Assembly: GCA_040752695.1 (NCBI GenBank)
Contig: JBFMGO010000095.1
Location: 1 to 23,634 of the forward strand
Direction: 5' to 3'
DNA: 23,634 nt
From: a bacterium
GTDB taxonomy: Bacteria; SZUA-182; DTGQ01
The position numbers and the translations under genes were made by a program. Each line of letters begins with the position of its first letter. Position 1 is the stretch's first letter. The notes under the pieces were generated by a model. That model made no database searches, was not told where the DNA came from, and saw only the letters and a program-made list of their open reading frames with translations. Positions 2-23,634 of the stretch are shown in pieces.

Positions 2-217
2 GTCTCCCCGCTCGTTCCTTACAGGCGTAACCAGTGGAGTGTAGGTAATGAACGTATTGTCATAGCTGGGGTATTGGGTTGCGGCCAGACCGTTTCCACT
101 CCCGACTGCCATAACTATTATTGCCAGAATAATTCCAGTAACCGCTTCCTTACCCAGCTTCATCTTTCTTAGCTTCATCTTTCCTAACTTTACCTTTCCT
201 AACCTCTTTATAATCAT
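2..217 (-). CDS. N-terminal part of an exported protein (runs off the window edge); not in the ORF track
   Basis: Read by hand: AGGAG RBS (229-233) then ATG at 217, giving MIIKRLGKVKLGKMKLRKMKLGKEAVTGIILAIIVMAVGSGNGLAATQYPSYDNTFITYTPLVTPVRNERGD. It has a basic n-region, a hydrophobic h-region and a GLA-A cleavage-like site, and stays open to the edge. Confidence 0.8.
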   Translation of the reverse strand, partial: MIIKRLGKVKLGKMKLRKMKLGKEAVTGIILAIIVMAVGSGNGLAATQYPSYDNTFITYTPLVTPVRNERGD

Positions 218-406
218 AATGATAATACTCCTACTCTAAACTTTCCTTAAGCGTCTCTATATTTTCCTTAACTATGTTATACTACTGCTCCGTTACTTAC
301 TATTGTTCTGTTACTGCACTTATTATTGCTTTATTACTGCGACTTTTCAAAAATTGCCTCATATTTGAGGAAGATACTCTCTTATGCAATTGTGCAGTTG
401 AGACTC

Positions 407-850
407 TCAAGACCTGATGATAGAAATGGTTATGAATCGAAGGGTTTCTGAAGGCAGATTGCTTTCCTTTGGAGGAGAGAGAGAATCCGTATTTACTAAA
501 ATCTCGCTATTTATCCTGGGGAGAAAAAACAACGGCTTCTGACAGGGGGTGATATATCGACTTATAATAAGATAGATTCTCTTAATAGCATTCGATAAGG
601 GGAAAACCTGGAAAAGGGTTTCGCAGTAAATCCCGAAACAACGAACCAGACTTTTTGGGGCTTGATTTACAGGCATCTGCATTAATACCCTCAGTCTGTG
701 AGTATCACCTAAGTTCCCACAAACCTCAAGGAATTCACAAACGCCAACCTCATGACATCGGACATATTCTGGTGCATCTAATCCCCCTATTGCACACAGC
801 AAGCTAATGAGAGTAATTTCCAGACCCAGGGTGAATATCTTTGATTTCAC
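407..850 (-). CDS. Small Cys-rich protein with N-terminal signal/TM segment (147 aa); possible metal-related leader ORF
   Basis: Strong GGAGGGAGGAG RBS precedes GTG at 850 (the track start at 874 lies at the RBS). Sequence begins MKSKIFTLGLEITLISLLCAIGG, with CHEVGVC-x5-C and CFGIYC clusters and a C-terminal PP...LRFITISIIRS. It lies between the sigma54 promoters and the exported protein. Confidence 0.55.
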   Translation of the reverse strand: MKSKIFTLGLEITLISLLCAIGGLDAPEYVRCHEVGVCEFLEVCGNLGDTHRLRVLMQMPVNQAPKSLVRCFGIYCETLFQVFPLSNAIKRIYLIISRYITPCQKPLFFLPRINSEILVNTDSLSPPKESNLPSETLRFITISIIRS

Positions 851-953
851 GAGCTTATTATCTCCTCCCTCCACACTACTCTTCTATCTTCCTAAACATA
901 AGGAGAACATCCGGCATAGCTTTAAGATATGTCCGAAAATATCCGTAGATAAG

Positions 954-1031
954 TCCGTGGCCGTAGAGGGGCCGCCCCCTCTACGGTGCCCAGTTGTTTA
1001 CGACCATGTAAACGCTTTTTTTTACCACGGA
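954..1031. other. Predicted three-way-junction stem-loop in the leader of the leftward transcript
   Basis: TCCGTGG (954-960) pairs with CCACGGA (1025-1031), enclosing an 11-bp hairpin CCGTAGAGGGG/CCCCTCTACGG (961-986) and a 6-bp hairpin GTTTAC/GTAAAC (996-1013). Confidence 0.5.
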
Positions 1032-1141
1032 TTAAGTTATTCAATAATCTCTTTGGAGCTTTGCTCAATTATTACTTTGCGGTTATAATCGAGTTTAGTA
1101 TAATACTTAGTATAATACCCAATATACCGGATTTAGCGCTC

Positions 1142-1157
1142 TGCACATAGTATGCCA
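1142..1157 (-). promoter_or_regulatory. sigma54 (-24/-12) promoter, copy 1
   Basis: Minus strand TGGCATACTATGTGCA = GG-N10-GC in consensus context. Confidence 0.75.
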
Positions 1158-1172
1158 ATCTAAGGGGCCCTA

Positions 1173-1188
1173 TGCACACGTTATGCCA
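1173..1188 (-). promoter_or_regulatory. sigma54 (-24/-12) promoter, copy 2
   Basis: Minus strand TGGCATAACGTGTGCA = GG-N10-GC, 31 bp from copy 1. Confidence 0.75.
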
Positions 1189-1265
1189 TTATGGGGAAGG
1201 GTTTAAAATAGAGGAGCTTCCTCCCATCTCCCTAAAATTTCCAGTTAAAATTATCGGGAATTTAC

Positions 1266-1417
1266 GTTTCAAGTTTGCACCAATGGGGTTTTTAGCCTGT
1301 TTCACATCTGGATATTGTTCATTCTGGCTCTATTTAAAAAGGGGAGAATGTAAAAAAATCCTCTTGATATAAAAGGGATGGATTTCAGTTATGGAATGCC
1401 TATTTCAAGTATGAAAC
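1266..1417. promoter_or_regulatory. Cluster of putative bEBP upstream activator sites (TTTCA-N4-TG[A/G/C]A)
   Basis: GTTTCAAGTTTGCAC (1266), TGTTTCACATCTGGATA (1298), ATTTCAGTTATGGAAT (1382) and ATTTCAAGTATGAAAC (1402). These imperfect palindromes lie ~80-230 bp upstream of the sigma54 boxes. Confidence 0.55.
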
Positions 1418-1731
1418 GTTTTATATCGGTGTTTACGCTGCAACGCAGAATAAGCTGACATTTTTCCCGAATCCTGCTTTATTTTTTAGAGCTCTAATGT
1501 TATCCTTTTAAAGGCGCTAATGTTACTCTTTTATCAGGTGCGGGTAAAATCTTGTATTATTCTTTTCTGTTGAAGCCAGAATGCCTTATGGCATAATGAT
1601 ATGGATGTGTCTCAAAGAAACTGCCGCTCAAAATTGCCGCAAGGGAGGCCCCCTTTAGTGGCAGGTGAAGAGGATAACTTGGTTGCATACTTGTAACATA
1701 TCTGATTAAAGAAAGGAGTCCCCGATAACCA

Positions 1732-2742
1732 GTGCATGCACCTGATGGAGTTTATAGTAACAGCCTTTGCCTGATCATGGACCTGGCATCTGCCGGAATC
1801 CTGGCTTATAGTCTGCGGAAGGTATGGAAGCGGGTCGGTACCAGGGAAATTCTGCTGGCCAGTGCTGTGGGCGCTTTTAGCTTTGCCCTGGAACTGGCCA
1901 GCTTTGAGGTCACGAGAGGGTCTACCTGCCACTTTATGGGAGGTGTTTTTGCATCCATTGTCCTGGGGCCGTATCTGGCTACCACGGTCATGACTCTTGA
2001 ACATATTATTCAGGTCTTTCTGTTCCAGGATGGCGGGATCATGGCCCTTGGCCCTAATCTTTTAACCATCGTGTGTATCAGCACCTTTGGAGGCTACTAT
2101 ATTTACTCTTTGCTGAAAAATTTCGTCATCGAGCCATATGGCAGCTACATTAGTGCCTTTCTTTCGGCCTGGCTTACTCTCCTGGTTACCAGTCTGACCG
2201 TTTGCGGTATGCTCTCCGTATGCGGAATCGAAGAGTTTTTCACCACTCTTGGCCCTATGGTGGGACCCCATGTTAAAGTGGGAGTTGCTGAAGGGATGTT
2301 GACGGTGCTCCTTCTGTTTGTCATTCAGGTTTTGGCTCCAGATGCATTCAATTGCCGGAGCCTCCATCAGAAAGAGCAGCAGGAGCAGATGGAAAAGCCG
2401 GAACAGAAAACTCGAAAGTGTTGGAGGCATCAGAACTCCTTGCCGAAATCAGCGAAAAAGGTTGCCTATGTCTTACTGGGGCTTGCCTTAATGGTCAGTC
2501 TGGCCATATCTCCCTTTGCTTCCAGGTCCGCTGAAGGATTGGAAAAATTTGCTCTGGACCGCGGTCATCCTGCCCCCCATAGAATTATCATCCATTATCA
2601 GGCACCGATACCGGAATATCACCTGCCCGGTGTCAGGGATCAGGAGATGGCCAAAATTCTGGGGGGAACGATTGGGACGATTGCCACCTTTGCCGCCTGT
2701 ATGCTGGCCCTTTCCATAATCAGGGCAGGGTCTGAATCTTGA
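1732..2742 (+). CDS. cbiM: CbiM/NikM-family ECF S-component fused to a NikN/PDGLE-like domain (NikMN-type Co/Ni binding membrane protein)
   Basis: N-terminal MHAPDG (family MHIPDG), GSTCHFMGG with the second metal-ligand His, QVFLFQDGGIMALGPN, and C-terminal SPFASRSAEGLEK...APIPEYHLPG (PDGLE-like). GAAAGGAG lies upstream of the GTG start. Confidence 0.9.
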   Translation: MHAPDGVYSNSLCLIMDLASAGILAYSLRKVWKRVGTREILLASAVGAFSFALELASFEVTRGSTCHFMGGVFASIVLGPYLATTVMTLEHIIQVFLFQDGGIMALGPNLLTIVCISTFGGYYIYSLLKNFVIEPYGSYISAFLSAWLTLLVTSLTVCGMLSVCGIEEFFTTLGPMVGPHVKVGVAEGMLTVLLLFVIQVLAPDAFNCRSLHQKEQQEQMEKPEQKTRKCWRHQNSLPKSAKKVAYVLLGLALMVSLAISPFASRSAEGLEKFALDRGHPAPHRIIIHYQAPIPEYHLPGVRDQEMAKILGGTIGTIATFAACMLALSIIRAGSES

Positions 2743-2774
2743 GTCTGAATCTTGAGTCTGGATCTTGAGTCTGA
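2730..2774. repeat. 13-bp tandem repeat (GTCTGAATCTTGA x~3.5) copying the cbiM stop region
   Basis: Units at 2730, 2743, 2756 and a partial unit at 2769; the first unit ends in the TGA stop. Confidence 0.9.
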
Positions 2775-2797
2775 TTAAGGTTGAATTTTGTTGAGAG

Positions 2798-5700
2798 GTG
2801 CTTTCTGTGATTAAGAGGCCCAATGCGATTCTTAAAAGCATATTAGTCCCTTTTCTGCTGGTATTTATTACTATTTTTTTGACTCACATCGGTATGCAGA
2901 CTCAACTGATGGACCAGGAACTGGATAAATTCATCGGGCAGAGCCTTATCAGTGCCATGAATATTATCCAGAATTATCTGCTGGCCGAAGAGTTAAAGGA
3001 TCCGATGCGCAGATTGGAGTTAGCGGCTGATTCTCTTTTACCGGATGCTCTTGATAATCTCAACAACGGCCTGGCGGATAGCCCCTCTCATCTTTTTACA
3101 GCACCGTGGGAAATGCTTGGAAGAGATCTTTCCCTCAATCACATTGCGCTCTTTGACCTGAATGGCAAGGTGATCAGTCAGAGGGATTTCTCCTCTTTCC
3201 ATGGAGGAGAAAGCAGGAAACAGATCCTTCTTGAGTTTCAGGCCCTGATCGCGCAGCGGAAAGTTATGGCCGAAATCAGCGGGATCGGCAAAATGGCTCA
3301 TTCTCTGGTTGCGGAGATGATTTTCCCCGTTCACAACCGGCAGAATGAAAGTATCGGTTATATGTCAGCCATTTGCAGCCTCGATAATCAGTTTTTCGAA
3401 AAAGTTCATCAACTGACCGGCTTTCATATCCTGATCTTCAGGGATGAGGAGTCTGTTTTCAGTACCCTGATAGGTGAAGCAGGAGAGCCGCTGACACTCT
3501 CTCCGAGGATTCAGGAAAAAGCTCTCCGTATCAATATCGATGGGAAACCCTTGGGAGCGATGGAGAGGGTTTTTCTTCTCGGTGCTGAATACCAGGCTGT
3601 TTCTTTTCCTTTTAAAAACATCCAGGGAGAAACAGGAGGAACCTTCATGCTCATTCATGATCTTAAGAACAAAAAGCAGAGCTTGAAGAAGATCGTTTTG
3701 AATCTTTTGTGGGCAAGCCTTATGGGAGTCGCGTTGCTTTTGTTTTTCGGATTCTTTATCAGCAGAGGAATTACCATTCCTATCAATCAACTGATCGAAG
3801 CCACCCGGCGCGTCTCGTTCGGAGATTTTAATACCAGGGCAGATGTCCAATCTCACCGGGAGTTGTTCACTCTGTCCCAGGCTTTCAATGCCATGACGGA
3901 AAATTTAAAGCGGACCTCGATTTCCAGGAATTACTTCCAGACCATTATCGATACCATGAATGATCTTTTAATTATCACATCTCCTGATCTTAACATCACC
4001 TTTGTCAATCAGGCCACCCAGAATGTGCTGGGATATGTCAAAGAGGAACTGATAGGCAAGCCCTTCAATTCCCTCTTCCACAAAGGATGCCCTTTCGAGG
4101 GGATGAATGTCGAGGCCATTGTCCAGCAGGGAATGGGAAAGGATTATACCTGTATCATGGCAACCAAAACGGGTGAAACCATTCCGGTGAGCTTTTCATG
4201 GTCAATCATGCGGGACGAGCAAAAATACCCTGATGAACGTAAAGGTCAGGACGGAAAAGAATACGCCGGAAATAAATCCCTGGATGAGACAGAATCCCCG
4301 GATAAAACCGAATCCCTGGATGAGACAAAATATCAGGATGAGACAGAGTCCCCGCATGAGAGAGAATCCCTGCATGAAGAAATAGATCAGAATGATGGGA
4401 AATCCCGCGATAAGGCCGAATGCCTGACCGAGATTGTCGGGATCGCCCGTGACATTCGGGAAAAGGCAGAGGCGGAGCAGAAGGTCAGGGAGGAGCGCGA
4501 TAAATTGAATACCCTGATCAATACCACCAACGATCTTATCTTTATCCGCAATCTTCAGGGAGAATATATTTTCGTCAGTCACGCTGTCCAGCGTATTCTC
4601 GGTTATTCGCCGGATGAGTTTAAAAGTCTTCCGCCTGAAAGGATCCTGAGCTCCAACCCCCTGAACCAGAACTTTATGGAATCCCCCATTCATTGGGGGA
4701 ACAAGGGAGAGCGGGAGAGGGGAGAACCCTACTGGGTGGAATTTTTGGCCTGCGATGGCAAGCCTATTTTCCTTGAAATCAACGAAACTCCCCTGCAAAG
4801 TGACAAGAGAGGAATTACCCAGATCATGGGAATCGGCAGAGATATTTCGGAAAGGCGAAGGCTGGAAGAGCAGTTGAGGGACTGGCATGAAAAACAGGCG
4901 AGGGTGCGGCAGGAAATATACCGGTTCGGCGAGGTCATAGGCAAGAGCAGGAAGATGCAGGAAATCTATGAACTTATCCAGATCGTTTCCCAGAATAACA
5001 GCACAGTCCTGCTGAAAGGGGAAAGCGGTACCGGCAAGGAGATGATTGCCCAGGCTATCCACGAACACAGCCCAAGGTGCAATTATCCTTTTGTTGAGGT
5101 AACCTGCTCGGCACTGTCCGAGCATTTACTCGAAAGCGAGCTTTTCGGCCACGTCAAGGGAGCTTTTACCGGTGCCATCAAGGATAAACAGGGCCGGTTT
5201 GAGCAGGCCAATGGAGGGACCATCTTTCTTGATGAATTGGGTGATATCAGCCTTAATGCTCAGGTTAAACTGCTTCGGGTCCTGCAGGAGCGGGAAATCG
5301 TGCGGGTGGGCGGGGATGAGCGGATTAAAATTGACGTCCGGATCATCGCCGCCACCAACAAAGATCTGGATGAAGCTGTGGCCAGAGGCGCTTTCCGGGA
5401 GGATCTCTACTACCGCCTCAATGTGGTGCCGATTAACGTTCCTGCCTTGAGGGAGAGAAAAGAAGATATCCCTCTTTTGGTTGATCATTTCATAAAAAAG
5501 ATAGATCGAAAAGTGGGAAAAGAAATAACCGAGATCTCCCAAAAGGCCCTGAATCTGTTGCGGGAATGTTACTGGCCGGGGAACATCAGGCAATTGGAAA
5601 ATGCCATAGAATATGCCATCGTCCGATGCCACGGCCAGGAAATCAGGGTACAGGATCTTCCTGAAGAGGTACGGAACCAGAAAGTGGAAAAGGCCTCGGT

Positions 5701-5857
5701 GCAGGACCTGATAGCCAATACGGAAAAAATGGCCATCCTCGACGCTTTCAAAGGCTGTCAGTGGGATTTGACTCGGACAGCCCGCCAGTTGAATATCAGC
5801 AGGACCACGCTCTGGCGTAAAATCAAAAAGTATGGAATAACCAAGCCAAAAGGATAA
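2798..5857 (+). CDS. Membrane-anchored sigma54-dependent enhancer-binding protein (TM-Cache-like-TM-HAMP-PAS-PAS-AAA+-Fis HTH), no receiver domain
   Basis: Two TM segments flank a ~260-aa periplasmic region. HAMP ([20 protein letters not shown]...[12 protein letters not shown]), two PAS/PAC domains (GIARDI, GIGRDI), Walker [15 protein letters not shown], Walker [27 protein letters not shown], and [22 protein letters not shown]. Confidence 0.95.
4275..4382 (+). repeat. In-frame 18-bp degenerate tandem repeat x6 inside PAS1 ([12 protein letters not shown]...)
   Basis: AATCCCTGGATGAGACAG-like units with period 18. Confidence 0.85.
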
Positions 5858-6088
5858 AGGCCGAACGAGGAGGATATACGGAGAATGGAGGACAGAGGAG
5901 GAGAGTGGAGAATATATGCGGAAGAGTGTGAAGGATACCGCAGGTCTGAATGCTGAAGGCCTGATGCTGAAGGCTGATGCTTAAGTATACCCCACCCATG
6001 AAATACGCGGACGGCCATCATCCTCCCCGCTGGTTATCATCATGTCCCGCCGGTTAATATCTTCCCCCCCTGTGGCAAAAAGGGTTTT

Positions 6089-6119
6089 ATCCCCTTTATA
6101 AAGAGGGTGAGGGGGATTT
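6089..6119. repeat. Short palindromic dispersed repeat (CCCCTTTATAAAGAGGG...GGGGGATTT)
   Basis: Hairpin-forming; its reverse complement resembles 8454-8487. Confidence 0.55.
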
Positions 6120-6213
6120 GAAGAAATGGTTCCATTGAACGATTGGCCGCGAATGGCCGCATAATTCCCGCGATCCGTATTTGAGGGGCCTTGATGCTGA
6201 AGAGGGAGATTGT

Positions 6214-8253
6214 ATGACACAAGTCACGGTACAAAAAAATTCGACACTGATTGGTGCAGCAATCAAAAACAAAGAGATCATCATCTCCTTTTGCCTGTTT
6301 GTCGTTCTCCTTTGCCTGCTCTGCTTTGTGAACAACAGCCTTGAACAGTATTCACCATCCACCATCCAAATGGCTAACCAGGCCACTGCCAGGGTGGTTT
6401 CCGGGATCCTCAACCTGATCAGGATCGAATCCACACCTTCAGAGAGCACCATCAATATCAGCAAAGGGGGATCGCTGCAAATTATATACGAATGCACCGG
6501 GATTTACGTGTTTCTCATTTTCACATCCTTCGTTCTTTCCTATCCTGCCTTTCTTCACCAGAAACTTTTGGGATTAGCCACTCTTATTCCTATCCTTTAT
6601 CTTTTTAATATATCTCGCATTGTCTCTCTGGCTATTGTTCAGATTCACTGGCCCCAGTATCTGGACATGATTCATAAGTATCTTTGGGAAGCCACCTTCA
6701 TAGTGCTGATCCTGGTTATGGCGTATCTGTGGCTCTTGTGGATCAGTGGCCAGCTCAGGTTTTGGAGGTGCGGAAAACTCCTCAAGGCAGCAGCTCAATT
6801 CGTTCTCTTCTCCTGTCTGGGATTTGGCCTTTTGATGCTCCTTTTTAGGCCATACCTTCACCTCCTGGGGGGTATGGTCAATACAGCATTATCCCTTTCC
6901 TGGAAGCACTGGCTGAATTACTGGCCCATGCGCCTTTTTATCGAGAATAAGGATCTTTGGCTGATCTACAGCGGAGGGAAGGTTCAGATACATGATGCTC
7001 AGTTTCTTGTCCCCAACCTGGTACCCTTTGTTTCCCTCATGCTGGTGACCAGGTTGCGGCCCAGGGTCAAAGCTTTGGGAGTTTCTCTTGGCAGTGTAAT
7101 CCTGTGTGGATACCATGCCTTCACCCTGATCCTGGTGATCCAGAAAATGGCCCAAAGGTGGTTATATCTCTACACTTTTTTTCGTGTCTACCTCCTTTTT
7201 CTTCTACCGGTCATCCTGTGGCTCCCCTTTTTCCTCTCGTCGCGGCAGCAGCGGCAGGGGGGGGAAGAAAATGTCGCTGCTGACGGCCGGAGCGGACTGA
7301 AAATCCTGCCAGGCCGAAATCCTGCCAGAACGCAGAAGACAGGGGCAGGGAAAACGGGGAGCGAAGTCGGTAGCGGTGTGAAGATAGCCGGAAGCCAAAT
7401 CGGCAGGGCGGGAGAAGCAGAAAACCACACTGCCAGGGCGGGAGAAGCAGGAATCCACACCGCCAGGGCAGTGAAAACAGGAAGTGGATGTGGAGTCGCT
7501 CGGGGAAGAGGAATGGATACTTTTCCGGGAGATACCGCGGGCTGCAAGGGTTTCTATGTTGTCCTGGGCATTATTCTCCCCATGGTCATCCTGCTCTTTG
7601 GTAATACGCCAGGTCCGGGGTACTATCTGGGGTTTTTCCTGTGGCTGACCGGCCTTGTTCTGATCCTGCCTCAATCCGCCTTTTTAACGGGCGCAAAAGG
7701 GAGAAAGCGGACCTTCGGTTTGATTCTTCTCTCTATCCTCTTCTGGCAAGGCCCGATACTTGCCAATTCTCTCATGTATGTACCTGAAGGGAAAAGGGCG
7801 CTGCTCCTCAAAAGCCCTAGCCAACCTTCTTCGTGTGTTGACGAGGGATTTCACCTTGGCTTTTATCTGGCTCAAAAACTGGTCCTTTTTGACCTGCAGG
7901 ATCGAAAAATCCTCATTCAGATCGGCGCACAGGTGCAAGATGAGCCAAGACCCCTGATAGCCGCTGATCTTGAGATTCTCTGCCATGTGTCGAAGAACTC
8001 CAACCTTGGCCGGATATACCTGGATCTCGGGGACAGCAAGGAAAAGGTTGATCAGGCCCTGGTGGTCATGCTCAAACAGCGGGTAGGCGCTGAAATTCAA
8101 AAATACCTGCCCCGCCTTTCGACCGCAAGCATGGATACCGGACGGATTCGCGCCCATATCATGGAAGCAGTGAAGAAGAGCCTGGATCCTTATAAGATCG
8201 AAGTTACCGGCATGAAAATAATAAATAAAGACAATCCTCAAAGAATACTATAG
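6214..8253 (+). CDS. Exosortase/archaeosortase-family protein (XrtH-like) fused to an exosortase-associated-type membrane domain, a low-complexity linker, TM helices and an SPFH/band-7-like domain
   Basis: Catalytic Cys/Arg/His motifs IIYECTG, LFNISRIVSL and MIHKYLWE. A second multi-TM region has PNLVPFVSLMLVT, and the C-terminus reads YVPEGKRALL...DEGFHL...SLDPYKIEVTGMKIIN. GGGAG RBS favours ATG 6214 over TTG 6181. Confidence 0.8.
   Translation: MTQVTVQKNSTLIGAAIKNKEIIISFCLFVVLLCLLCFVNNSLEQYSPSTIQMANQATARVVSGILNLIRIESTPSESTINISKGGSLQIIYECTGIYVFLIFTSFVLSYPAFLHQKLLGLATLIPILYLFNISRIVSLAIVQIHWPQYLDMIHKYLWEATFIVLILVMAYLWLLWISGQLRFWRCGKLLKAAAQFVLFSCLGFGLLMLLFRPYLHLLGGMVNTALSLSWKHWLNYWPMRLFIENKDLWLIYSGGKVQIHDAQFLVPNLVPFVSLMLVTRLRPRVKALGVSLGSVILCGYHAFTLILVIQKMAQRWLYLYTFFRVYLLFLLPVILWLPFFLSSRQQRQGGEENVAADGRSGLKILPGRNPARTQKTGAGKTGSEVGSGVKIAGSQIGRAGEAENHTARAGEAGIHTARAVKTGSGCGVARGRGMDTFPGDTAGCKGFYVVLGIILPMVILLFGNTPGPGYYLGFFLWLTGLVLILPQSAFLTGAKGRKRTFGLILLSILFWQGPILANSLMYVPEGKRALLLKSPSQPSSCVDEGFHLGFYLAQKLVLFDLQDRKILIQIGAQVQDEPRPLIAADLEILCHVSKNSNLGRIYLDLGDSKEKVDQALVVMLKQRVGAEIQKYLPRLSTASMDTGRIRAHIMEAVKKSLDPYKIEVTGMKIINKDNPQRIL
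7402..7469 (+). repeat. In-frame 30-bp repeat x2.3 (RAGEAENHTA RAGEAGIHTA RA)
   Basis: Direct repeat with period 30 in the fusion linker. Confidence 0.85.
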
Positions 8254-15608: not shown

Positions 15609-17690
15609 TTAATTTCGAGGGGAAAGGATCCGAACATCAGTACAACCCTGAATTGTACGTCCATTTAACGTCTTGCCTGTTATACATGCCTGCGTATCAC
15701 CCCTCGTAAATCCTGTTTCATTTGTGTCGTAATGAAGTACCATATCATCACATCCATCCTCATTCATGTCTATAATGCCCACATTTCCTTGCGCTTCGGT
15801 GCAATCGCCAACTCCTCTAATTGTTCCAGGGCCAAAACATATAGTTACAGGATCGATATCGTGGACATCAAGTACGTCTGAAGTAAAGATAGTTACCGCG
15901 ATAACTCCTCGTGACCGCAGGTTGATAGAATTTCTTACTTCAATGTCTACTGAAATTGGCTTGACCGCTGCTTCTACTACAGCGATCATCGCCTGAGCAA
16001 CGCCTTCCCCGGTAACTGCATGGGAACAAACAATCGGATCCCCTTCTTGTATGTCTATTGTTCCATCACCATCACAATCGACACCCCCTTCCGGAGCGAG
16101 CGCATCAGTAGCCTCAGCAATGGCACGTAAGTCTGTCAATGCACCCTCATTATCTCCGGAACGGACACCGATGACTTTTGGTGGATCAAGGGCCAATATC
16201 GCGCTCATTGTGTCATTGAAACTTGGTCCAGGATAAGGGATATCCCCGGGATCACCCGGATAATGAAACGAGGCATCTGTCCACACAAGAAAAAGCTTGG
16301 TTGCATTATTTCTGAAATTGGCCTGTTGACCCGGATTGATACTGGCGGCTGGATATCCCGCACCTGTGAGATCCTGTCCTGCCCCCGTTGCCGCTTGATA
16401 AAGCGCTGCTAATTGACTTTCAGACCAATCGACCCCAGAACCTGGAGAAACAATCGATAATCCATTGATAGCTGTGATCACATTTGTCGTGTTTGCAGTG
16501 AGGTCAAGAACCCGCTGATAAGCATAATCATTATATGTCGAAGAGCCAAAAGGGGGTATTGGATAGTCAATGAATGATCCAAGCCCGACTTTGAGATCGA
16601 AACGGGTATCAAGGTCATTGATCAATGAAGTAGCATTTACTTTAAATTCTGCTATATCATCCATATAGCTGCCTGAAAGGTCTACAAGAAAGTAAAGGTC
16701 AACAGGCTCACCAGTCAACCATCCAATATCCACTAGCAATGCCTCTGCAAGTCCAACATCATGTGAAGCTCCGAGGTATGATGGCTCCATCCGCTGATCC
16801 GGGATGAGTGATGTGCTAAAGTGACATACTGAAGAACCTGGCTCCGCTGGATTTGGAGCGTACATTTCCACATGTCCACTTGGTTGATGTCGTCCAGCGG
16901 TAAGGAATGTGCTTTCTGCAACGACTATCGGCCCTACCCAGTGTAAATCTCCAGTATCTGTGCTCGCAGTAATACGCTCGGCATCTGTCATGTCAGGATA
17001 AAACTTCCCTGTGCTATGATCCTCCAGATAAATCATGAATGAGTCGTCACGGCCATCGAACTTTACCCCTGTGCCGAGATCCACAAAAGTTAGAAAGCCA
17101 AGTCCATGCGCCAGTTCATGTAAGGCTACAGTTACAAAGTCAACCCCACCAGGAGGAGGAGAAGCATCCAGGCCATAGTACCAAGAAAGAGTAGTAAGGC
17201 AACCGGTTGTCCCGACATTACTATTAAATGTTGCTCCGATATCGTTATGTCCCGGATTTGTATCAATTCCACACAATTTATTAGCTAAAGCAATAGGATA
17301 CCAAGTATTTGCCCTCAGTGCTCCAGTAAAATCACGGTTAACAAATAGCGGTCCACAATTAGCGAGAACTCCTCCTGTGGGAGAGCAGGGTGTCATTGGA
17401 TTAAAATTGGCCTCGACTCTGATGTCTACGCTACTCTCAATAAGATCAGCCCAAATATCCGCAGCGAACTGAAGGGCTTGAAGTCGTTGGGCACCCAATG
17501 TGGCACCGGTATTACCACCTGCTGCCGAAGCTGAATCTGGAGCAGCAGGATCATTGAATCCTTCGCCAGGGCCATCAAGATTTATGATCACAAAGTTTGC
17601 TTCGGCATAGACAAAGTATGGGAACATAAGGGATGTTGTTTGGAAAATGGCTACGAGTATAATAATTTTAAACATGTTTTTATTCTTCAT
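15609..17690 (-). CDS. Secreted multidomain protein: HExxH Zn-metallopeptidase-like domain, integrin-beta-like vWA (MIDAS) domain and a C-terminal domain with a DxNxDG Ca-binding-like loop
   Basis: Signal peptide ending VYA-E; GEGFNDP...GGNTGATLGAQR; LHELAHGLGF; DLYFLVDLSGS MIDAS; DMNEDGCDDMVLHY. Confidence 0.85.
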   Translation of the reverse strand: MKNKNMFKIIILVAIFQTTSLMFPYFVYAEANFVIINLDGPGEGFNDPAAPDSASAAGGNTGATLGAQRLQALQFAADIWADLIESSVDIRVEANFNPMTPCSPTGGVLANCGPLFVNRDFTGALRANTWYPIALANKLCGIDTNPGHNDIGATFNSNVGTTGCLTTLSWYYGLDASPPPGGVDFVTVALHELAHGLGFLTFVDLGTGVKFDGRDDSFMIYLEDHSTGKFYPDMTDAERITASTDTGDLHWVGPIVVAESTFLTAGRHQPSGHVEMYAPNPAEPGSSVCHFSTSLIPDQRMEPSYLGASHDVGLAEALLVDIGWLTGEPVDLYFLVDLSGSYMDDIAEFKVNATSLINDLDTRFDLKVGLGSFIDYPIPPFGSSTYNDYAYQRVLDLTANTTNVITAINGLSIVSPGSGVDWSESQLAALYQAATGAGQDLTGAGYPAASINPGQQANFRNNATKLFLVWTDASFHYPGDPGDIPYPGPSFNDTMSAILALDPPKVIGVRSGDNEGALTDLRAIAEATDALAPEGGVDCDGDGTIDIQEGDPIVCSHAVTGEGVAQAMIAVVEAAVKPISVDIEVRNSINLRSRGVIAVTIFTSDVLDVHDIDPVTICFGPGTIRGVGDCTEAQGNVGIIDMNEDGCDDMVLHYDTNETGFTRGDTQACITGKTLNGRTIQGCTDVRILSPRN

Positions 17691-18054
17691 GATCCTGCTC
17701 CCCCCTTTTCTCGAAGTCGTGCTTTATGGTCAGCGAAGGACGAAAATGACCTTTTAAATCGATTATCATGCCGCCACCAGGCACAGGACTTGGAGTCTCC
17801 TCCAGAGCTTCTTTAGGAGATTCTGAGGACTTTTCAACAATAAAAGGGCCTTGACCAGATGGCGCGATAAACTCACCAGTTTCCGGATCGATATAAATCT
17901 TCTGAGCAGCGGTGCCAGCGTCAGGCGATTCACCCGATGCCTGCACAGTATCATCTTGTGCTTCTCTTTGATCTAAGGAAAAAGCCTCTCCCGGACAGTA
18001 AAAGACGCAGAATGCAAATATGCTTAATAACACGGTAAAAATTTTGAATTTCAT
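17680..18054 (-). CDS. Small exported protein (YIDPETGE...GGGMIIDLKGHF type), partner or propeptide-like for the downstream peptidase
   Basis: GGAGG RBS before ATG 18054; signal peptide MKFKIFTVLLSIFAFCVFYCPGEAFS; overlaps the peptidase start by 11 nt. Confidence 0.75.
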   Translation of the reverse strand: MKFKIFTVLLSIFAFCVFYCPGEAFSLDQREAQDDTVQASGESPDAGTAAQKIYIDPETGEFIAPSGQGPFIVEKSSESPKEALEETPSPVPGGGMIIDLKGHFRPSLTIKHDFEKRGEQDHEE

Positions 18055-18277
18055 CTCTTCTCCTCCATCTTTTCTAACCCTACAATGAGACATTCATCAC
18101 CTGTAAGGGGAGCGGGAGCCCCGGATGATCAGGCAATAGAAACAACTACCACCCCATAGATTTGAAGCCAGAAGATGTTCGTATGATGGCAATGGATACA
18201 GGAAAAATTGTAGTATCTAAATAAAACTACTCAGTACACATCACCTTAATTTCGCGACCAGTTAAAGGCAATAAGAT

Positions 18278-18826: not shown

Positions 18827-19471
18827 GTGACAGGCCCGTGGACAGTTGAAGTAGATGAGATTTACCAGACAGCAGGGCATAAGGATGGTCGCCCCAAGGA
18901 GGACCCTATTGCTTTGAATCGGCCTGCCCGCAGGAGAGGAAAGAAAAAGGGGCCAGGCCGTGGATCTGCTCAGAAGGACTCTCCAGCCATTGAAGGGATG
19001 GTTAGCCGTGATGGCCAAGTGGTGGTAGAAATCGTTGCCGATGTCAAAAGAGAAACTCTGCAACCTGTCTTTGAAAAACGGGTAGAAAAAGGAAGCACTG
19101 TATACACGGATACTGCTTCTTGCTACAGTTTTTTGGAAGAAGCAGGCTACCATCATGAGACGGTCAATCACAGCCACAAAGAGTATGTTCGAGGAGATGT
19201 ACATGAAAACCGTGCCGAGAACCTGTGGTTGTTCTGGCTGATCTTCATACTCCCTTTCAGAAGAGTGGCCAAAGGATATCTGTCTGATTATGCTAAGGTA
19301 TTTCAATTCCAAAGAAACCATCATGCCTTGACCGCCTTCGGAAGGTCTCTGTTTGTGTTGAACTCCCTCTTGCACGGTCTACTCCCTTATATCAAAAAGT
19401 GGATCTCGTTACTTGAGAGCTACTTTATACTCGCTCTCTCCTCAACACATAAAGCTTATTCTGGTGGTTAA
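18827..19471 (+). pseudogene. IS1595-family (ISXO2-like DDE domain) transposase, N-terminally truncated or degenerate
   Basis: VEVDE, GPGRG, VYTD, HETVNHS, YVRGDVHENRAENLW. The N-terminal Zn-ribbon/HTH region is missing and no clear RBS precedes the GTG. Confidence 0.8.
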
Positions 19472-19492: not shown

Positions 19493-19508
19493 TGCAAACA
19501 ATATGCCA
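19493..19508 (-). promoter_or_regulatory. sigma54 (-24/-12) promoter inside the island
   Basis: Minus strand TGGCATATTGTTTGCA, with a very AT-rich tract (19510-19600) upstream. Confidence 0.7.
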
Positions 19509-20812: not shown

Positions 20813-22252
20813 TCATTCGGTTACTGCTCTTGTAACCAGACGGATGATGCGCTTTTGATCCTTTTGTGCAATAAAGCAATGGGTGGGAAGAGTGAGCAGA
20901 GTCTGAGCCAGCTTATGGGCCGCAGGAAAATTTCCCCTGATAACCTGGCCCTGAAGCTGGTCAATGCCATCGATCGAGTCTGGATACATACGGCTGATAC
21001 CCAGTCCCAGATGCCGTGCCTGCTGATAAAGACGATCTCGCTGATGCGGATCTTTCATGATCAGGGGAAAGCGCAGGAAGGGTAAAGATGCAGATTCTTC
21101 TGTAGCAATGGCTTGCAGAGGAGAGGATATGGCATTGACCGGCTTTATACCGGCGGCGGGTAAGGGTATAGACATGGGATTGACCGGTTTCACACCGGCA
21201 GGCATGGCATCGACCGTTTTCACTGTGGAAGGCATAGTATCGATCAGTCCCAGGGGGGAAGGCATGCTCCTGATCAGCCTCTGATACAGGCGCGCCCTTT
21301 CAAGACGTGCCTGGTTCATGTGGATCATTTTCCTTCTCCACCTTCGCATCAGACCACACTGGAAGCCGGACATCCGCTTCAGGGAAAAGCCGGTGGAAAA
21401 TTCCGTCTGGCCCAGCTTTAAAAAGGGCAAATGGTCGGGCAGCCAGTAGAGGGATGGCCGTAAGAAACATGCCAGTGCCATGGCCTTGGCCACAAGGATC
21501 ACCTTCTCCTGCCAGGAGTACGGGGGCAATTTCTGGTATTCTCTCTGCAAAGCTGCGGCTAGATCAGGATTTCGGGTTACGATGATTCCTCCTTCAACCG
21601 TGCAGATTACCTTCCCCCTGCCAAGGCTGAAGAAGCCCACATCTGCCCTGGTGCCCGCCGCCTTCCGCAGGGCGCAGCAGCCCTGGCCTGGTTTTTCCTG
21701 AGTTGATTCCCCCTGGCCTGGCTTTCTCACATTTTTCTCCACTTGGGCCGAATCAGCCGGATAGGAGATGCCCATAGCCTGAGCTGCATCTTCCACCACC
21801 CATATCCCTTTTGAGCGTGCCAGGTCCAGGCAATGATCCAGGTCCGCCAGCCTGCCCAGGAGATGATTGACGACGATACAGAGTGTTTGCCCGGTAAGCT
21901 GAGATTTGAGCAGCGAATAGTCAAAGTCCAGGGTTTGCACATCAATTTCGCCCAGGGACACGGACAGCCCGGCTTTGACCACTGAAGATGCTACGGAATA
22001 GCAGGTATAAGCTGGAATCAGGACTGACTTTTTCTCCGGCGATAGGGTATGAAGTGCCTTCAGGATCAGGGTAAGAGCCGCCTTCCCGGAAGATACCAGC
22101 CAGCAATCCGTCACTCCGAAATAATTGCACAGCTCTTTTCGAAGTCTCTCGCTGGCCCGCTTCTCACTGAACCATCCATGCAATCCCTCCATAACTTCCC
22201 ACCATGTAAGGGGAGCCGCTGTGGGAGGAAAGGTTCGCTGAATCCGCATCAT
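20813..22252 (-). CDS. DegT/DnrJ/EryC1/StrS-family PLP-dependent aminotransferase-like protein
   Basis: VSSGKAAL, LIPAYTCYSV, VVEDAAQAMG, FFSLGRGK...EGG, LLTLPTH. Confidence 0.88.
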   Translation of the reverse strand: MMRIQRTFPPTAAPLTWWEVMEGLHGWFSEKRASERLRKELCNYFGVTDCWLVSSGKAALTLILKALHTLSPEKKSVLIPAYTCYSVASSVVKAGLSVSLGEIDVQTLDFDYSLLKSQLTGQTLCIVVNHLLGRLADLDHCLDLARSKGIWVVEDAAQAMGISYPADSAQVEKNVRKPGQGESTQEKPGQGCCALRKAAGTRADVGFFSLGRGKVICTVEGGIIVTRNPDLAAALQREYQKLPPYSWQEKVILVAKAMALACFLRPSLYWLPDHLPFLKLGQTEFSTGFSLKRMSGFQCGLMRRWRRKMIHMNQARLERARLYQRLIRSMPSPLGLIDTMPSTVKTVDAMPAGVKPVNPMSIPLPAAGIKPVNAISSPLQAIATEESASLPFLRFPLIMKDPHQRDRLYQQARHLGLGISRMYPDSIDGIDQLQGQVIRGNFPAAHKLAQTLLTLPTHCFIAQKDQKRIIRLVTRAVTE

Positions 22253-22334
22253 TCATTCACTCACTCACTCACTCACTCACTCACTCACTTACTTACTCAC
22301 ACACACACACACACACTCTCTCTCTCTCTCTCTC
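22249..22334. repeat. Compound microsatellite directly upstream of the DegT-like start
   Basis: (TCAT)2 (TCAC)8 (TTAC)2 TC (AC)9 (TC)9. Confidence 0.95.
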
Positions 22335-22419
22335 CCGCACACTCCCTCTGCCTCACGCACTTTTGATCAGGCTCTCACCTACATTTCTCCCTCCCCCCAA
22401 CTCTCTTCCGCTGCAGTTA

Positions 22420-23466
22420 TCAGGGCATGCCCCTGGCCAGTAATGGACCGATAGTCCGTGTGAGAGGAAGAGGCATCCTTTTCCACAATTGGATAGCCAG
22501 GCGGTATTTGGGATTTTCCGGATGGAGGGCCGGAAGGTCTTCCCCTTCTCTCAGCCAGTAGTACCAATACAAGGGATGGGGTTTTGCCCCCCACTGTTGC
22601 TTGAACCTATAGGTTCCCGATCCTGGGGCGGAGCGGCCAAAGTCGAAAGAAGTGTATCCTGCCTCACATGCATACCGCAGTACTCCCCAGTACAGGAGCA
22701 TGTTCGTGCATAAGTGATTGTACTCACGCAGAGAGGATGCCCAGGGAATTTGCAGCGTGTCCCTGAAGCCAAGAATCAGACCGGAGGCAAGGGGCTGCGA
22801 TCCCCGATAAACCGTACAGATTTTGGACCTGTCAGGAAAGGTAGCCAGAACAGCCTGAAAAAAATTTTTTCCCAGGACAGGGGTGCCAAGATCTCGCATA
22901 TTATGTGCAAATACCTGATAGAACGACTCCAGTTCCTCTTCTCCCCCTTGGCGGAAATTAAATCCCTGATGCTCTCCTTTCCGGATCTGGTTTCGCAGTT
23001 TTGCCGAGAAGCCCTGCCAGAGCTCAGCCCAGGAACCCGGCAGATCCAGCGTCATTGCCACCCGGTGCTGCTTGACCGGAAGATCCCATGAGTAGGTCTC
23101 CATCTGTCTGAGCTCGAGATGCCGTGCTCCAACCCTGCAGGCAATCTCTGTACCGCGCTGGAGCAGCATCATTTGCACTCCGGAGTCATGGGCACATACT
23201 CCCCCATAGTTAAAACAAGGGAGCGAAATCAGACGGGAGCCGAACAGCCAGCTTTTCAGATGGGCCATGGGCAAGACCCCGACCACCTCACCCTCTTCGT
23301 CTTCAGCATACAGATAATAGGCAGGATGGCCGAGGACTGGCTCAAGGACCTTTTTCCAGGCCGAGAGGTGATAAAGGCTGGAAATGGGACAGCTATGGAC
23401 ATATTCATCCCATCGCTCCCGATCGCGGTCTTCGAGTGAATAAATTGTCACTTTCGGTCCAGCCAT
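22420..23466 (-). CDS. FemAB-family GNAT protein of the type found in PEP-CTERM/exosortase-A EPS loci
   Basis: WDEYV...YHLSAW, LISLPCFNYGG, KLRNQIRK, NMRDLGTPV, FDFGRS...GTYRFKQQWGA, NPKYRLAIQLWKRMPL. AAGGAG RBS favours ATG 23466. Confidence 0.9.
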   Translation of the reverse strand: MAGPKVTIYSLEDRDRERWDEYVHSCPISSLYHLSAWKKVLEPVLGHPAYYLYAEDEEGEVVGVLPMAHLKSWLFGSRLISLPCFNYGGVCAHDSGVQMMLLQRGTEIACRVGARHLELRQMETYSWDLPVKQHRVAMTLDLPGSWAELWQGFSAKLRNQIRKGEHQGFNFRQGGEEELESFYQVFAHNMRDLGTPVLGKNFFQAVLATFPDRSKICTVYRGSQPLASGLILGFRDTLQIPWASSLREYNHLCTNMLLYWGVLRYACEAGYTSFDFGRSAPGSGTYRFKQQWGAKPHPLYWYYWLREGEDLPALHPENPKYRLAIQLWKRMPLPLTRTIGPLLARGMP

Positions 23467-23634
23467 AGCCAAGTCTCCTTCCCTGCACGTATGAGATATG
23501 TGAAGCCTCGAACTTCCAAGACATAACCCCTATCGGTATTCTTTTAGTATATTTATTACGCTATTATTACATTTATTTTATTCCCATTATTATCTTATTT
23601 ATTACTAATATATCACTAATTTTAATCAATATTT

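Follow-up and report, generated by a model that had tools for sequence, protein, structure and literature searches.

What does a nickel/cobalt-type S-component do when its gene stands next to that of a membrane-bound transcriptional activator, with no importer subunits encoded beside it? The question is raised by a 23,634-nt contig (GenBank JBFMGO010000095.1), here called the window, which is the entire contig C95 of the bacterial genome G000 (6.05 Mb, 96.6% complete). A NikMN-like gene, a gene for a sigma54-dependent bacterial enhancer-binding protein (bEBP) and an exosortase-family fusion lie on one strand, and a Cys-rich open reading frame (ORF) and a secreted protein are encoded divergently; all five ORFs lie where the initial annotation of this DNA had placed them (Table 1). 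That annotation had proposed that the S-component acts as a co-sensor of the membrane regulator, a proposal to which adjacency, matching trees, retention through duplications and output swaps, and a natural fusion lend strong comparative support at the level of sequence. In our judgement the S protein is probably the metal-binding receptor subunit of its membrane sensor, here governing the sigma54 activator of the divergent exported-protein operon. In more general terms, it is likely that a metal S-component from energy-coupling factor (ECF) transporters has been co-opted as a portable Ni/Co receptor, docking on a transmembrane (TM)-Cache-TM-HAMP transducer that is wired to a sigma54 ATPase or a kinase, either as two genes or as one chain.

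The 336-aa S protein matches Pfam CbiM over residues 2-204 (E 1e-39; 136.7 bits against a cut-off of 23.1) and PDGLE over residues 242-331, and is a member of the CbiM/NikM family with the fused NikM-NikN layout. Its gene starts with GTG, and because an in-frame stop lies two codons upstream with no earlier start, the Met-His N-terminus is forced. Alignment with TtNikM2 (PDB 4M58; E 3e-19) places M1, H2 and H67 on the metal ligands, which bears out the N-terminal M-H and the His of GSTCH that had been read as retained ligands, and the second-shell network of TtNikM2 is kept as well (T65, Q94, G101, G102, N109, H180, equivalent to H190, and E187, equivalent to E198); the roles of the metal-site residues in NikM are defined in PMC3945884. 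H2, H67, Q94, N109, H180 and E187 are intact in all 19 sensor-linked proteins and in all 10 sequences of the fusion described below. We infer from these sequences that the S protein binds Ni2+ or Co2+. Nickel is the favoured ligand, since the closest relatives are of NikMN type with a PDGLE N domain and since several NiFe hydrogenase matches and three carbon monoxide dehydrogenases score over cut-off in the genome; NikR was not found in this 96.6% complete genome. The protein scores below all nine NCBIfam cbiM/cbiN models listed (best 110 against a cut-off of 401), and its clade carries C66 and H91 in 90-93% of 40 proteins versus 0% of 56 transporters, with C158 and M160 as further clade-specific residues. 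An AlphaFold model built from a 9-row alignment was too poor for use (mean predicted local distance difference test score, pLDDT, 49.8).

The gene that follows after 55 nt encodes the receiver-less transmembrane sigma54 activator that had been described there, as Pfam, TM and motif scans agree. Its order is TM1 (10-28), a dCache-like domain, TM2 (303-321), HAMP, two PAS domains, AAA+ and a Fis-type helix-turn-helix (HTH), with Pfam reporting a weak dCache_3, HAMP, two PAS, Sigma54_activat and HTH_8 and no receiver domain. Walker A and GAFTGA motifs are found in the AAA+ domain, which together with the HTH identify a sigma54 enhancer-binding protein (AAA+ with Walker A/B, GAFTGA and HTH), and rpoN is present in one copy in the genome. 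Assignment of the protein as PrsR was rejected, given a score of 327.8 against the TIGR02915 cut-off of 502.6 and the lack of a receiver domain. Within the first PAS domain the window copy carries a low-complexity acidic repeat insert (4225-4425, plus strand; DETESP-like), which is absent from its orthologues, these being 50-70 aa shorter.

A profile search for the S protein returned 35 proteins at 345-574 bits, with the next score at 208, and the sensor-linked S proteins fall on a single branch of the tree, of 40 rows, with a support of 100 and a length of 0.81; the first tree excluded 13 proteins in which no start could be recognised and one control (L075) that was mis-framed, and the second comprised 57 chosen rows. 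Strong matches to this clade occurred in 10 of 20 genomes of the class, all within the window's order, to which 13 of the 20 belong. We read 22 loci that had a full S domain and downstream DNA (18 from genomes and 4 from metagenomes, several of the latter closely related to genome loci and hence non-independent); three more, cut inside the S gene, were not counted. The sensor is the next gene in 19 of the 22, two S genes stand alone and one locus ends 257 nt past the S gene, and cbiQ or cbiO adjoins the S gene in none. The control set of 11 more distant CbiM/NikM loci contained 9 with an adjacent Q- or O-like gene by motif tag, 2 with neither, and none with a sensor next. This genome search for cbiM-like genes that lack Q/O and stand beside sensors, which the initial annotation had suggested, shows that the gene order is conserved in relatives. 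The outputs of the 19 sensors differ: 12 are sigma54 activators, and the 7 kinase loci comprise five kinases (four then followed by a sigma54 response regulator, one cut by the contig end) and two hybrid kinases.

Searching the class with the sensor input module gave 18 matches in 11 genomes with an S gene directly upstream in 15, these being the same 15 from which the sensor profile was built. Six genomes hold two paralogous cassettes in which each S gene groups with its own sensor, and the S protein of a second pair in G000, on contig C27, is 66% identical to that of the window. Trees of S proteins and sensors correspond closely (Mantel r 0.94, reached in 0 of 2000 permutations), nearest neighbours agree in 13 of 19 cases, and the two reading frames overlap or nearly touch. 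Linkage alone would also yield congruent trees; the weight lies in the pair having survived duplications, output swaps and moves of neighbourhood.

The two partners also occur as one natural chain. P0101, a protein of 1081 aa that ranked 13th of 1.84 billion representatives for the sensor-module profile (E 1e-25), comprises CbiM (2-204), PDGLE (224-310), Cache, HAMP (627-679), PAS, HisKA and HATPase, and matches the window S protein at 35% over 322 columns and the window activator at 26% over 436 columns. The fusion is present in three clusters of 86-89% identity, with 12 member sequences from Logan, ENA, NCBI, JGI and GEM on contigs of up to 263 kb. Its S domains are sister to the sensor-linked clade (support 99/97), a position that fits a single origin of the partnership, and they carry the ordinary transporter residues G66 and L91 at the clade-specific positions. 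NikM has seven helices with its N-terminus outside (PMC3945884); these and two NikN helices would leave the chain inside, where TM1 begins, and the topology of the fusion would be consistent with this. Searching for longer proteins with the S alignment gave a single match, an M-N-Q fusion, the kinase fusion having come from the sensor-profile search, and the kinase fusion was not found in the genomes of four small phyla (2, 13, 13 and 38 genomes) in a search made without a positive control.

The TM-Cache-TM-HAMP input module is homologous across all S-linked partners despite their differing outputs, and is also homologous to that of P0101. Mean identity among the sensors is 25% in the Cache domain versus 43% in TM1 and 39% in TM2, although the higher TM identity partly reflects low-complexity composition, which lessens its force for the receptor reading. 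TM1 shows the conserved pattern K-I-x-x-x-I-x-x-P-F-x-x-x-F, and the conserved Cache positions are nearly all Gly, Pro or hydrophobic. Because the TM helices are the more conserved and the conserved Cache positions mostly structural, these data weakly suggest an input other than a conserved Cache pocket. The same input module was also seen in other lineages, in unfused kinases and one chemotaxis-type fragment (P0099, P0100, P0102 and P0103).

Might the S protein nevertheless serve an importer? As had been noted at first, cbiQ and cbiO do not follow the S gene; the window holds neither, and CbiQ matches lie on other contigs of the genome. G000 has two complete importers, a cbiM-N-Q-O set in the cob cluster (C81) and a nikM-Q-O-O operon preceded by two accessory genes (C90), and because both have their own M subunits the orphan S genes are extra M subunits. 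The initial annotation had counted cognate cbiQO elsewhere that form a normal transporter with this protein as grounds for abandoning its proposal; Q/O genes do exist elsewhere in the genome, but two sets have a cbiM or nikM of their own. An ordinary S-component that uses Q/O encoded elsewhere, its linkage to the regulator being historical, would find a CbiQ-family gene in 19 of 20 genomes of the class, including a stand-alone one in G000, and would be in keeping with the existence of stand-alone S copies and with a small-residue helix-2 motif which, on inspection of the possible T-component docking surface, is kept with no visible loss. We regard this as very improbable: chance linkage would not lead one to expect the kinase fusion, a pair kept through several duplications and moves, or overlapping and near-touching frames, and metal ECF transporters belong to type 1, whose parts are all encoded in a single operon (PMC3945884). 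The stand-alone CbiQ/EcfT-family gene of G000 (C99:11634-12467, minus strand; L015) is flanked by ftsZ-like and purB-like genes and has neither an S gene nor an ATPase gene as a neighbour. In two near-identical S copies of genome G004 (L064:7437-8402 and L065:1442-2407), Arg takes the place of His2 and the metal-site loop carries a Cys-rich insertion of the CGCCGTCTCG type; neither copy has a sensor as its next gene, and the lone S copy of genome G005 has an intact site. The changes in G004 are perhaps those of an altered ligand rather than of decay.

A somewhat better alternative, which we still hold to be unlikely, is that the NikMN protein works as a solitary ATP-independent permease and that the sensor reads flux or delivered metal (for example through PAS) or needs the metal as a cofactor. 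M and N alone form the minimal uptake unit and give basal uptake (PMC3945884; PMC7689651), so that a solitary transport role is conceivable and tells against a pure receptor; the N domain is kept in both clade and fusion, the clade-specific C66, H91, C158 and M160 could form a relay, and transporter-dependent flux sensing is known for BceS/BceAB (PMC8534201). On the other side, the genome already has two full importers, and the kinase relatives L024 (truncated, S-linked) and P0096 show no PAS, so that PAS is not a universal reader.

What the receptor would control in the window is suggested by the DNA between the divergent genes. Sigma54 sites of the form TGGCA-N7-TGCA, directed away from the cassette, were found as the tandem pair that had been described at first, and the window holds three sigma54 sites in all versus 0.30 expected (0 of 100 shuffles reached three); the tandem arrangement proved peculiar to the window, and one intact site is present in all five orthologous regions. 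Scans for sigma70 promoters and terminators were set aside, with 18 versus 11.0 and 11 versus 10.5 expected. The enhancer-like palindromes of the initial annotation are there as TTTCA-N4-TGAAA-type sites at about 1383-1396 and 1403-1416. With this motif defined from the five orthologous regions, one mismatch allowed, and the 600 nt upstream of the S gene scanned, a palindrome occurred in 5 of 5 defining loci, in 7 of 7 other bEBP loci (shuffles gave an expectation of 0.47) and in 1 of 6 kinase loci (expectation 0.48), the consensus being TGTTTCA-N4-TGAAACA. Across G000 there are 13 sigma54 sites with a palindrome upstream versus 5.1 expected, and these include the divergent operons of both cassettes, four small exported Pro-rich proteins and sites close to two related activators, on C50 and C168, which may share the palindrome motif.

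The first gene of the predicted target operon belongs to a Cys/His family found in 12 of 13 genomes of the order and in 0 of 7 other genomes of the class, with a hydrophobic N-terminus, the motif DAxxY-x-C-x-H-xxx-CEFL, a variable middle and a conserved C-terminal S-I-I-x-S. The family is multicopy, often precedes exported-protein genes, has G000 paralogues on C10, C78 (two), C122, C124 and C141, and gave no usable Pfam or Atlas match. Its layout is reminiscent of the metal-responsive leader CruR/CutF (DUF2946), which has a CXXC motif and a C-terminal RAPP arrest motif (PMC9426467), but the family has neither; identity with CruR/CutF was rejected, as there was no DUF2946 match at E up to 1 in 10 members, the cysteines are spaced C-x5-C and the C-terminus reads S-I-I-x-S. 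A new leader or arrest peptide is one possibility for this family.

Full-length orthologues of the divergent secreted protein are about 755 aa long and end in PWWS-Y/L/I with no sorting tail; G000 has at least seven paralogues, none with a library match, and Atlas gave only sub-threshold Ig/cadherin-like leads (best 0.83). Contig C48 is the likely continuation of the operon, because it starts with the last 40 residues of the secreted protein and then carries the same two genes as in genome G002. The contig break falls in a duplicated gene: positions 1-136 of C95 and C141:1-136 are 98.5% identical, and the last 40 residues are found both on C48 (2-121) and at the end of C176. At loci of the C27 type the divergent genes encode a lipoprotein and a Rieske protein, and at one of them a cytochrome c as well. 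The suggestion of a surface-sorted divergent product did not hold, as the full-length orthologues lack a sorting tail and the paralogous cassette on C27 faces a lipoprotein and a Rieske protein. The small exported Pro-rich family of G000 (ALPPYNTLWPLW motif) has about 29 copies or loci and no library match; together with the PWWS-ended paralogues it is possibly a lineage-specific surface system.

These targets bear on one further alternative, which we consider more doubtful than the solitary permease, namely that the S protein has a structural or inhibitory role as a membrane partner, with its metal as a fixed cofactor for sensing gas, redox or envelope stress and not metal level. The predicted targets are exported Ig-like and Pro-rich proteins, a lipoprotein and Rieske/cytochrome proteins, not metal homeostasis, and the clade gained conserved Cys and His residues (C66, H91) absent from transporters. 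However, the fusion proteins keep the transporter residues G66 and L91, and the site is the unmodified four-nitrogen site of NikM.

If the S protein is the receptor, Ni2+ (or Co2+) from outside the inner membrane would bind the M1/H2/H67 site, and a change in shape or a tilt of the S-component would be passed through helix contacts to TM1/TM2 and HAMP. The HAMP-PAS region would then release or restrain the AAA+ domain bound at the TGTTTCA-N4-TGAAACA sites, and sigma54 polymerase would open the divergent promoter.

Several observations weigh against the receptor reading. Adjacent genes co-duplicate regardless of function, and since every unfused case belongs to a single order, adjacency and tree match do not count as independent events; the fusion adds one further lineage, and in one fusion cluster of 8 members two are halves of a split copy (two ORFs). 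An S gene is missing upstream of three of the 18 sensors, two of them in G005, where one intact S gene lies unlinked, and one in G007, so that the sensor can exist without the S subunit, and no S-clade member was found in G007 (98% complete). No palindrome lies in the 600 nt upstream of the nik and cbi operons, and no recognised Ni/Co importer, exporter or Ni enzyme is among the predicted targets.

Transporter-dependent sensors are familiar from DcuS/DctA, UhpB/UhpC and CbrA. The system described here would resemble BceS/BceAB, another case of transporter-dependent kinases (PMC8534201), in that a membrane transport protein is the predicted source of the sensor's signal, and differs from systems of that type, which use whole ABC or secondary transporters, in having a lone ECF S-component with a transition-metal site; we found none using either. 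Another parallel is KsAmt5 of Ca. Kuenenia, an ammonium sensor kinase in which a transporter domain is fused to a histidine kinase (PMC8534201): in both, a transporter fold is retained as the selective ion-binding input of a signalling output and a fused form exists, but here the fold is that of an ECF S-component and not Amt, mostly two genes are involved, an extra Cache-HAMP lies between receptor and output, and a sigma54 ATPase is a possible output. Compared with the group I ECF importers NikMNQO/CbiMNQO (TtNikM2, PDB 4M58; RcCbiM, PDB 5X3X), the S protein shares CbiM plus PDGLE, the M-N fusion and all first- and second-shell residues, and differs in a long separate branch, scores below the NCBIfam cbiM cut-offs, a signalling partner and the lack of a common operon, with no Q/O beside the 22 loci. 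CzcRS and CnrYXH likewise relay extracytoplasmic Co/Ni sensing across the membrane to transcription, and CnrX/CnrY also divide binding and transmission between two membrane proteins (PMC7689651); their binding domains are unrelated and they control efflux pumps, whereas the predicted targets here are exported proteins under sigma54. Finally, PrsK/PrsR regulation of PEP-CTERM systems also has a sigma54 activator near an exosortase-family gene, but here the activator lies below the PrsR cut-off and has no receiver, the exosortase is not XrtA, the target has no CTERM tail and the linkage is limited to one genus.

In the literature, the available text of PMC2667541 gives M, Q and O as near-universal components with no mention of a sensor link, that of PMC7726332 treats nikMN/cbiMN as transport only, and that of a 2021 review (PMC7689651) states that only a few extracytoplasmic metal sensors have been characterised and that no protein cobalt sensor is known to regulate an importer. 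Our search, with most subscription papers outside its reach, found no paper in which an S-component is paired with a sensor or fused to one; transporters acting as sensors are known, but among the searchable papers none had an ECF S-component, a family treated as transport-only. If true, it would give an ECF S-component a signalling role for which we could find no precedent, and would be a new kind of extracytoplasmic transition-metal sensor. The single-chain NikMN-kinase offers a direct handle, one gene with ligands mapped by the NikM structure, for asking whether metal binding or S-component toppling drives HAMP; it bears on how S-components move and might serve as a high-affinity Ni/Co biosensor. 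The pair also suggests a way in which an uncultured anaerobe that has several nickel enzymes, and in which NikR was not found, may track nickel.

Table 1. Positions of the S-component cassette and its predicted target operon in the window
Feature	Position	Strand	Basis
NikMN-like S-component, sensor-linked clade, fused NikM-NikN type, 336 aa	1732..2742	+	Pfam, alignment to PDB 4M58, conservation, trees
One-component membrane sigma54 activator (bEBP), 1019 aa	2798..5857	+	Pfam, TM and motif scan, input-module homology
Sigma54 -24/-12 site, upstream copy, directed at Cys ORF	1173..1188	-	Motif scan, orthologous-region alignment
Sigma54 -24/-12 site, downstream copy, 31 nt repeat of the 1173..1188 site	1142..1157	-	Motif scan, orthologous-region alignment
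Two adjoining palindromes matching TGTTTCA-N4-TGAAACA, predicted activator binding sites	1381..1418	.	Cross-locus motif counts
Conserved weaker palindrome GTTTCAAGTTTGCA, about 80-90 nt upstream of promoter	1266..1281	.	Conserved block, five-locus DNA alignment
Small exported-type Cys/His protein, first gene of predicted target operon	407..850 (ORF 407-874)	-	Family alignment
Secreted protein, N-terminal 72 aa of about 755 aa, PWWS-ended family, cut by contig end	2..217	-	Orthologues
Exosortase-family fusion, about 10 TM helices plus C-terminal soluble domain	6181..8253	+	TIGR04178, triad, TM scan

The exosortase fusion passes TIGR04178 (52.9 against a cut-off of 23) and lies below every subfamily cut-off, and its Cys-Arg-His triad, invariant in 5 of 5 orthologues, places it in the exosortase/archaeosortase family. 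Its middle region has further TM helices, and its C-terminal soluble domain (7699-8250, plus strand), which has no library match, resembles by eye a degenerate SPFH/band-7 domain. It follows the S-sensor pair in G000, G001, G002 and two similar metagenome loci; in G005 and G007 it sits on a different contig from the pair, and it was not found elsewhere among the genomes of the order. The initial annotation was right that an exosortase gene comes after the activator, but this linkage is confined to one genus and no target with a sorting tail lies nearby, and we rejected it as a core component; full-length orthologues of the secreted protein lack the C-terminal motif, TM helix and basic tail that would mark the target of a dedicated exosortase. 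G000 does have PEP-CTERM-like proteins and four exosortase-family genes.

The idea of a metal or cobamide acquisition target next to cobS/cobC fell away: none of the other loci read has these genes after the cassette, Rfam detected no cobalamin riboswitch in 8 sources, and no predicted target is known to serve metal uptake. Elsewhere in the window, positions 15609-18093 (minus strand) encode a secreted metalloprotease-like plus vWA protein with a small exported ORF upstream, and the third perfect sigma54 site (19493-19508, minus strand) lies further upstream, beyond an IS1595-family transposase (18827-19471). Positions 20813-23472 (minus strand) hold an aminotransferase gene of the DegT family and a FemAB-family gene that exceeds the XrtA/PEP-CTERM-associated cut-off (TIGR03019), probably the edge of an exopolysaccharide locus that is unrelated to the S-sensor cassette.

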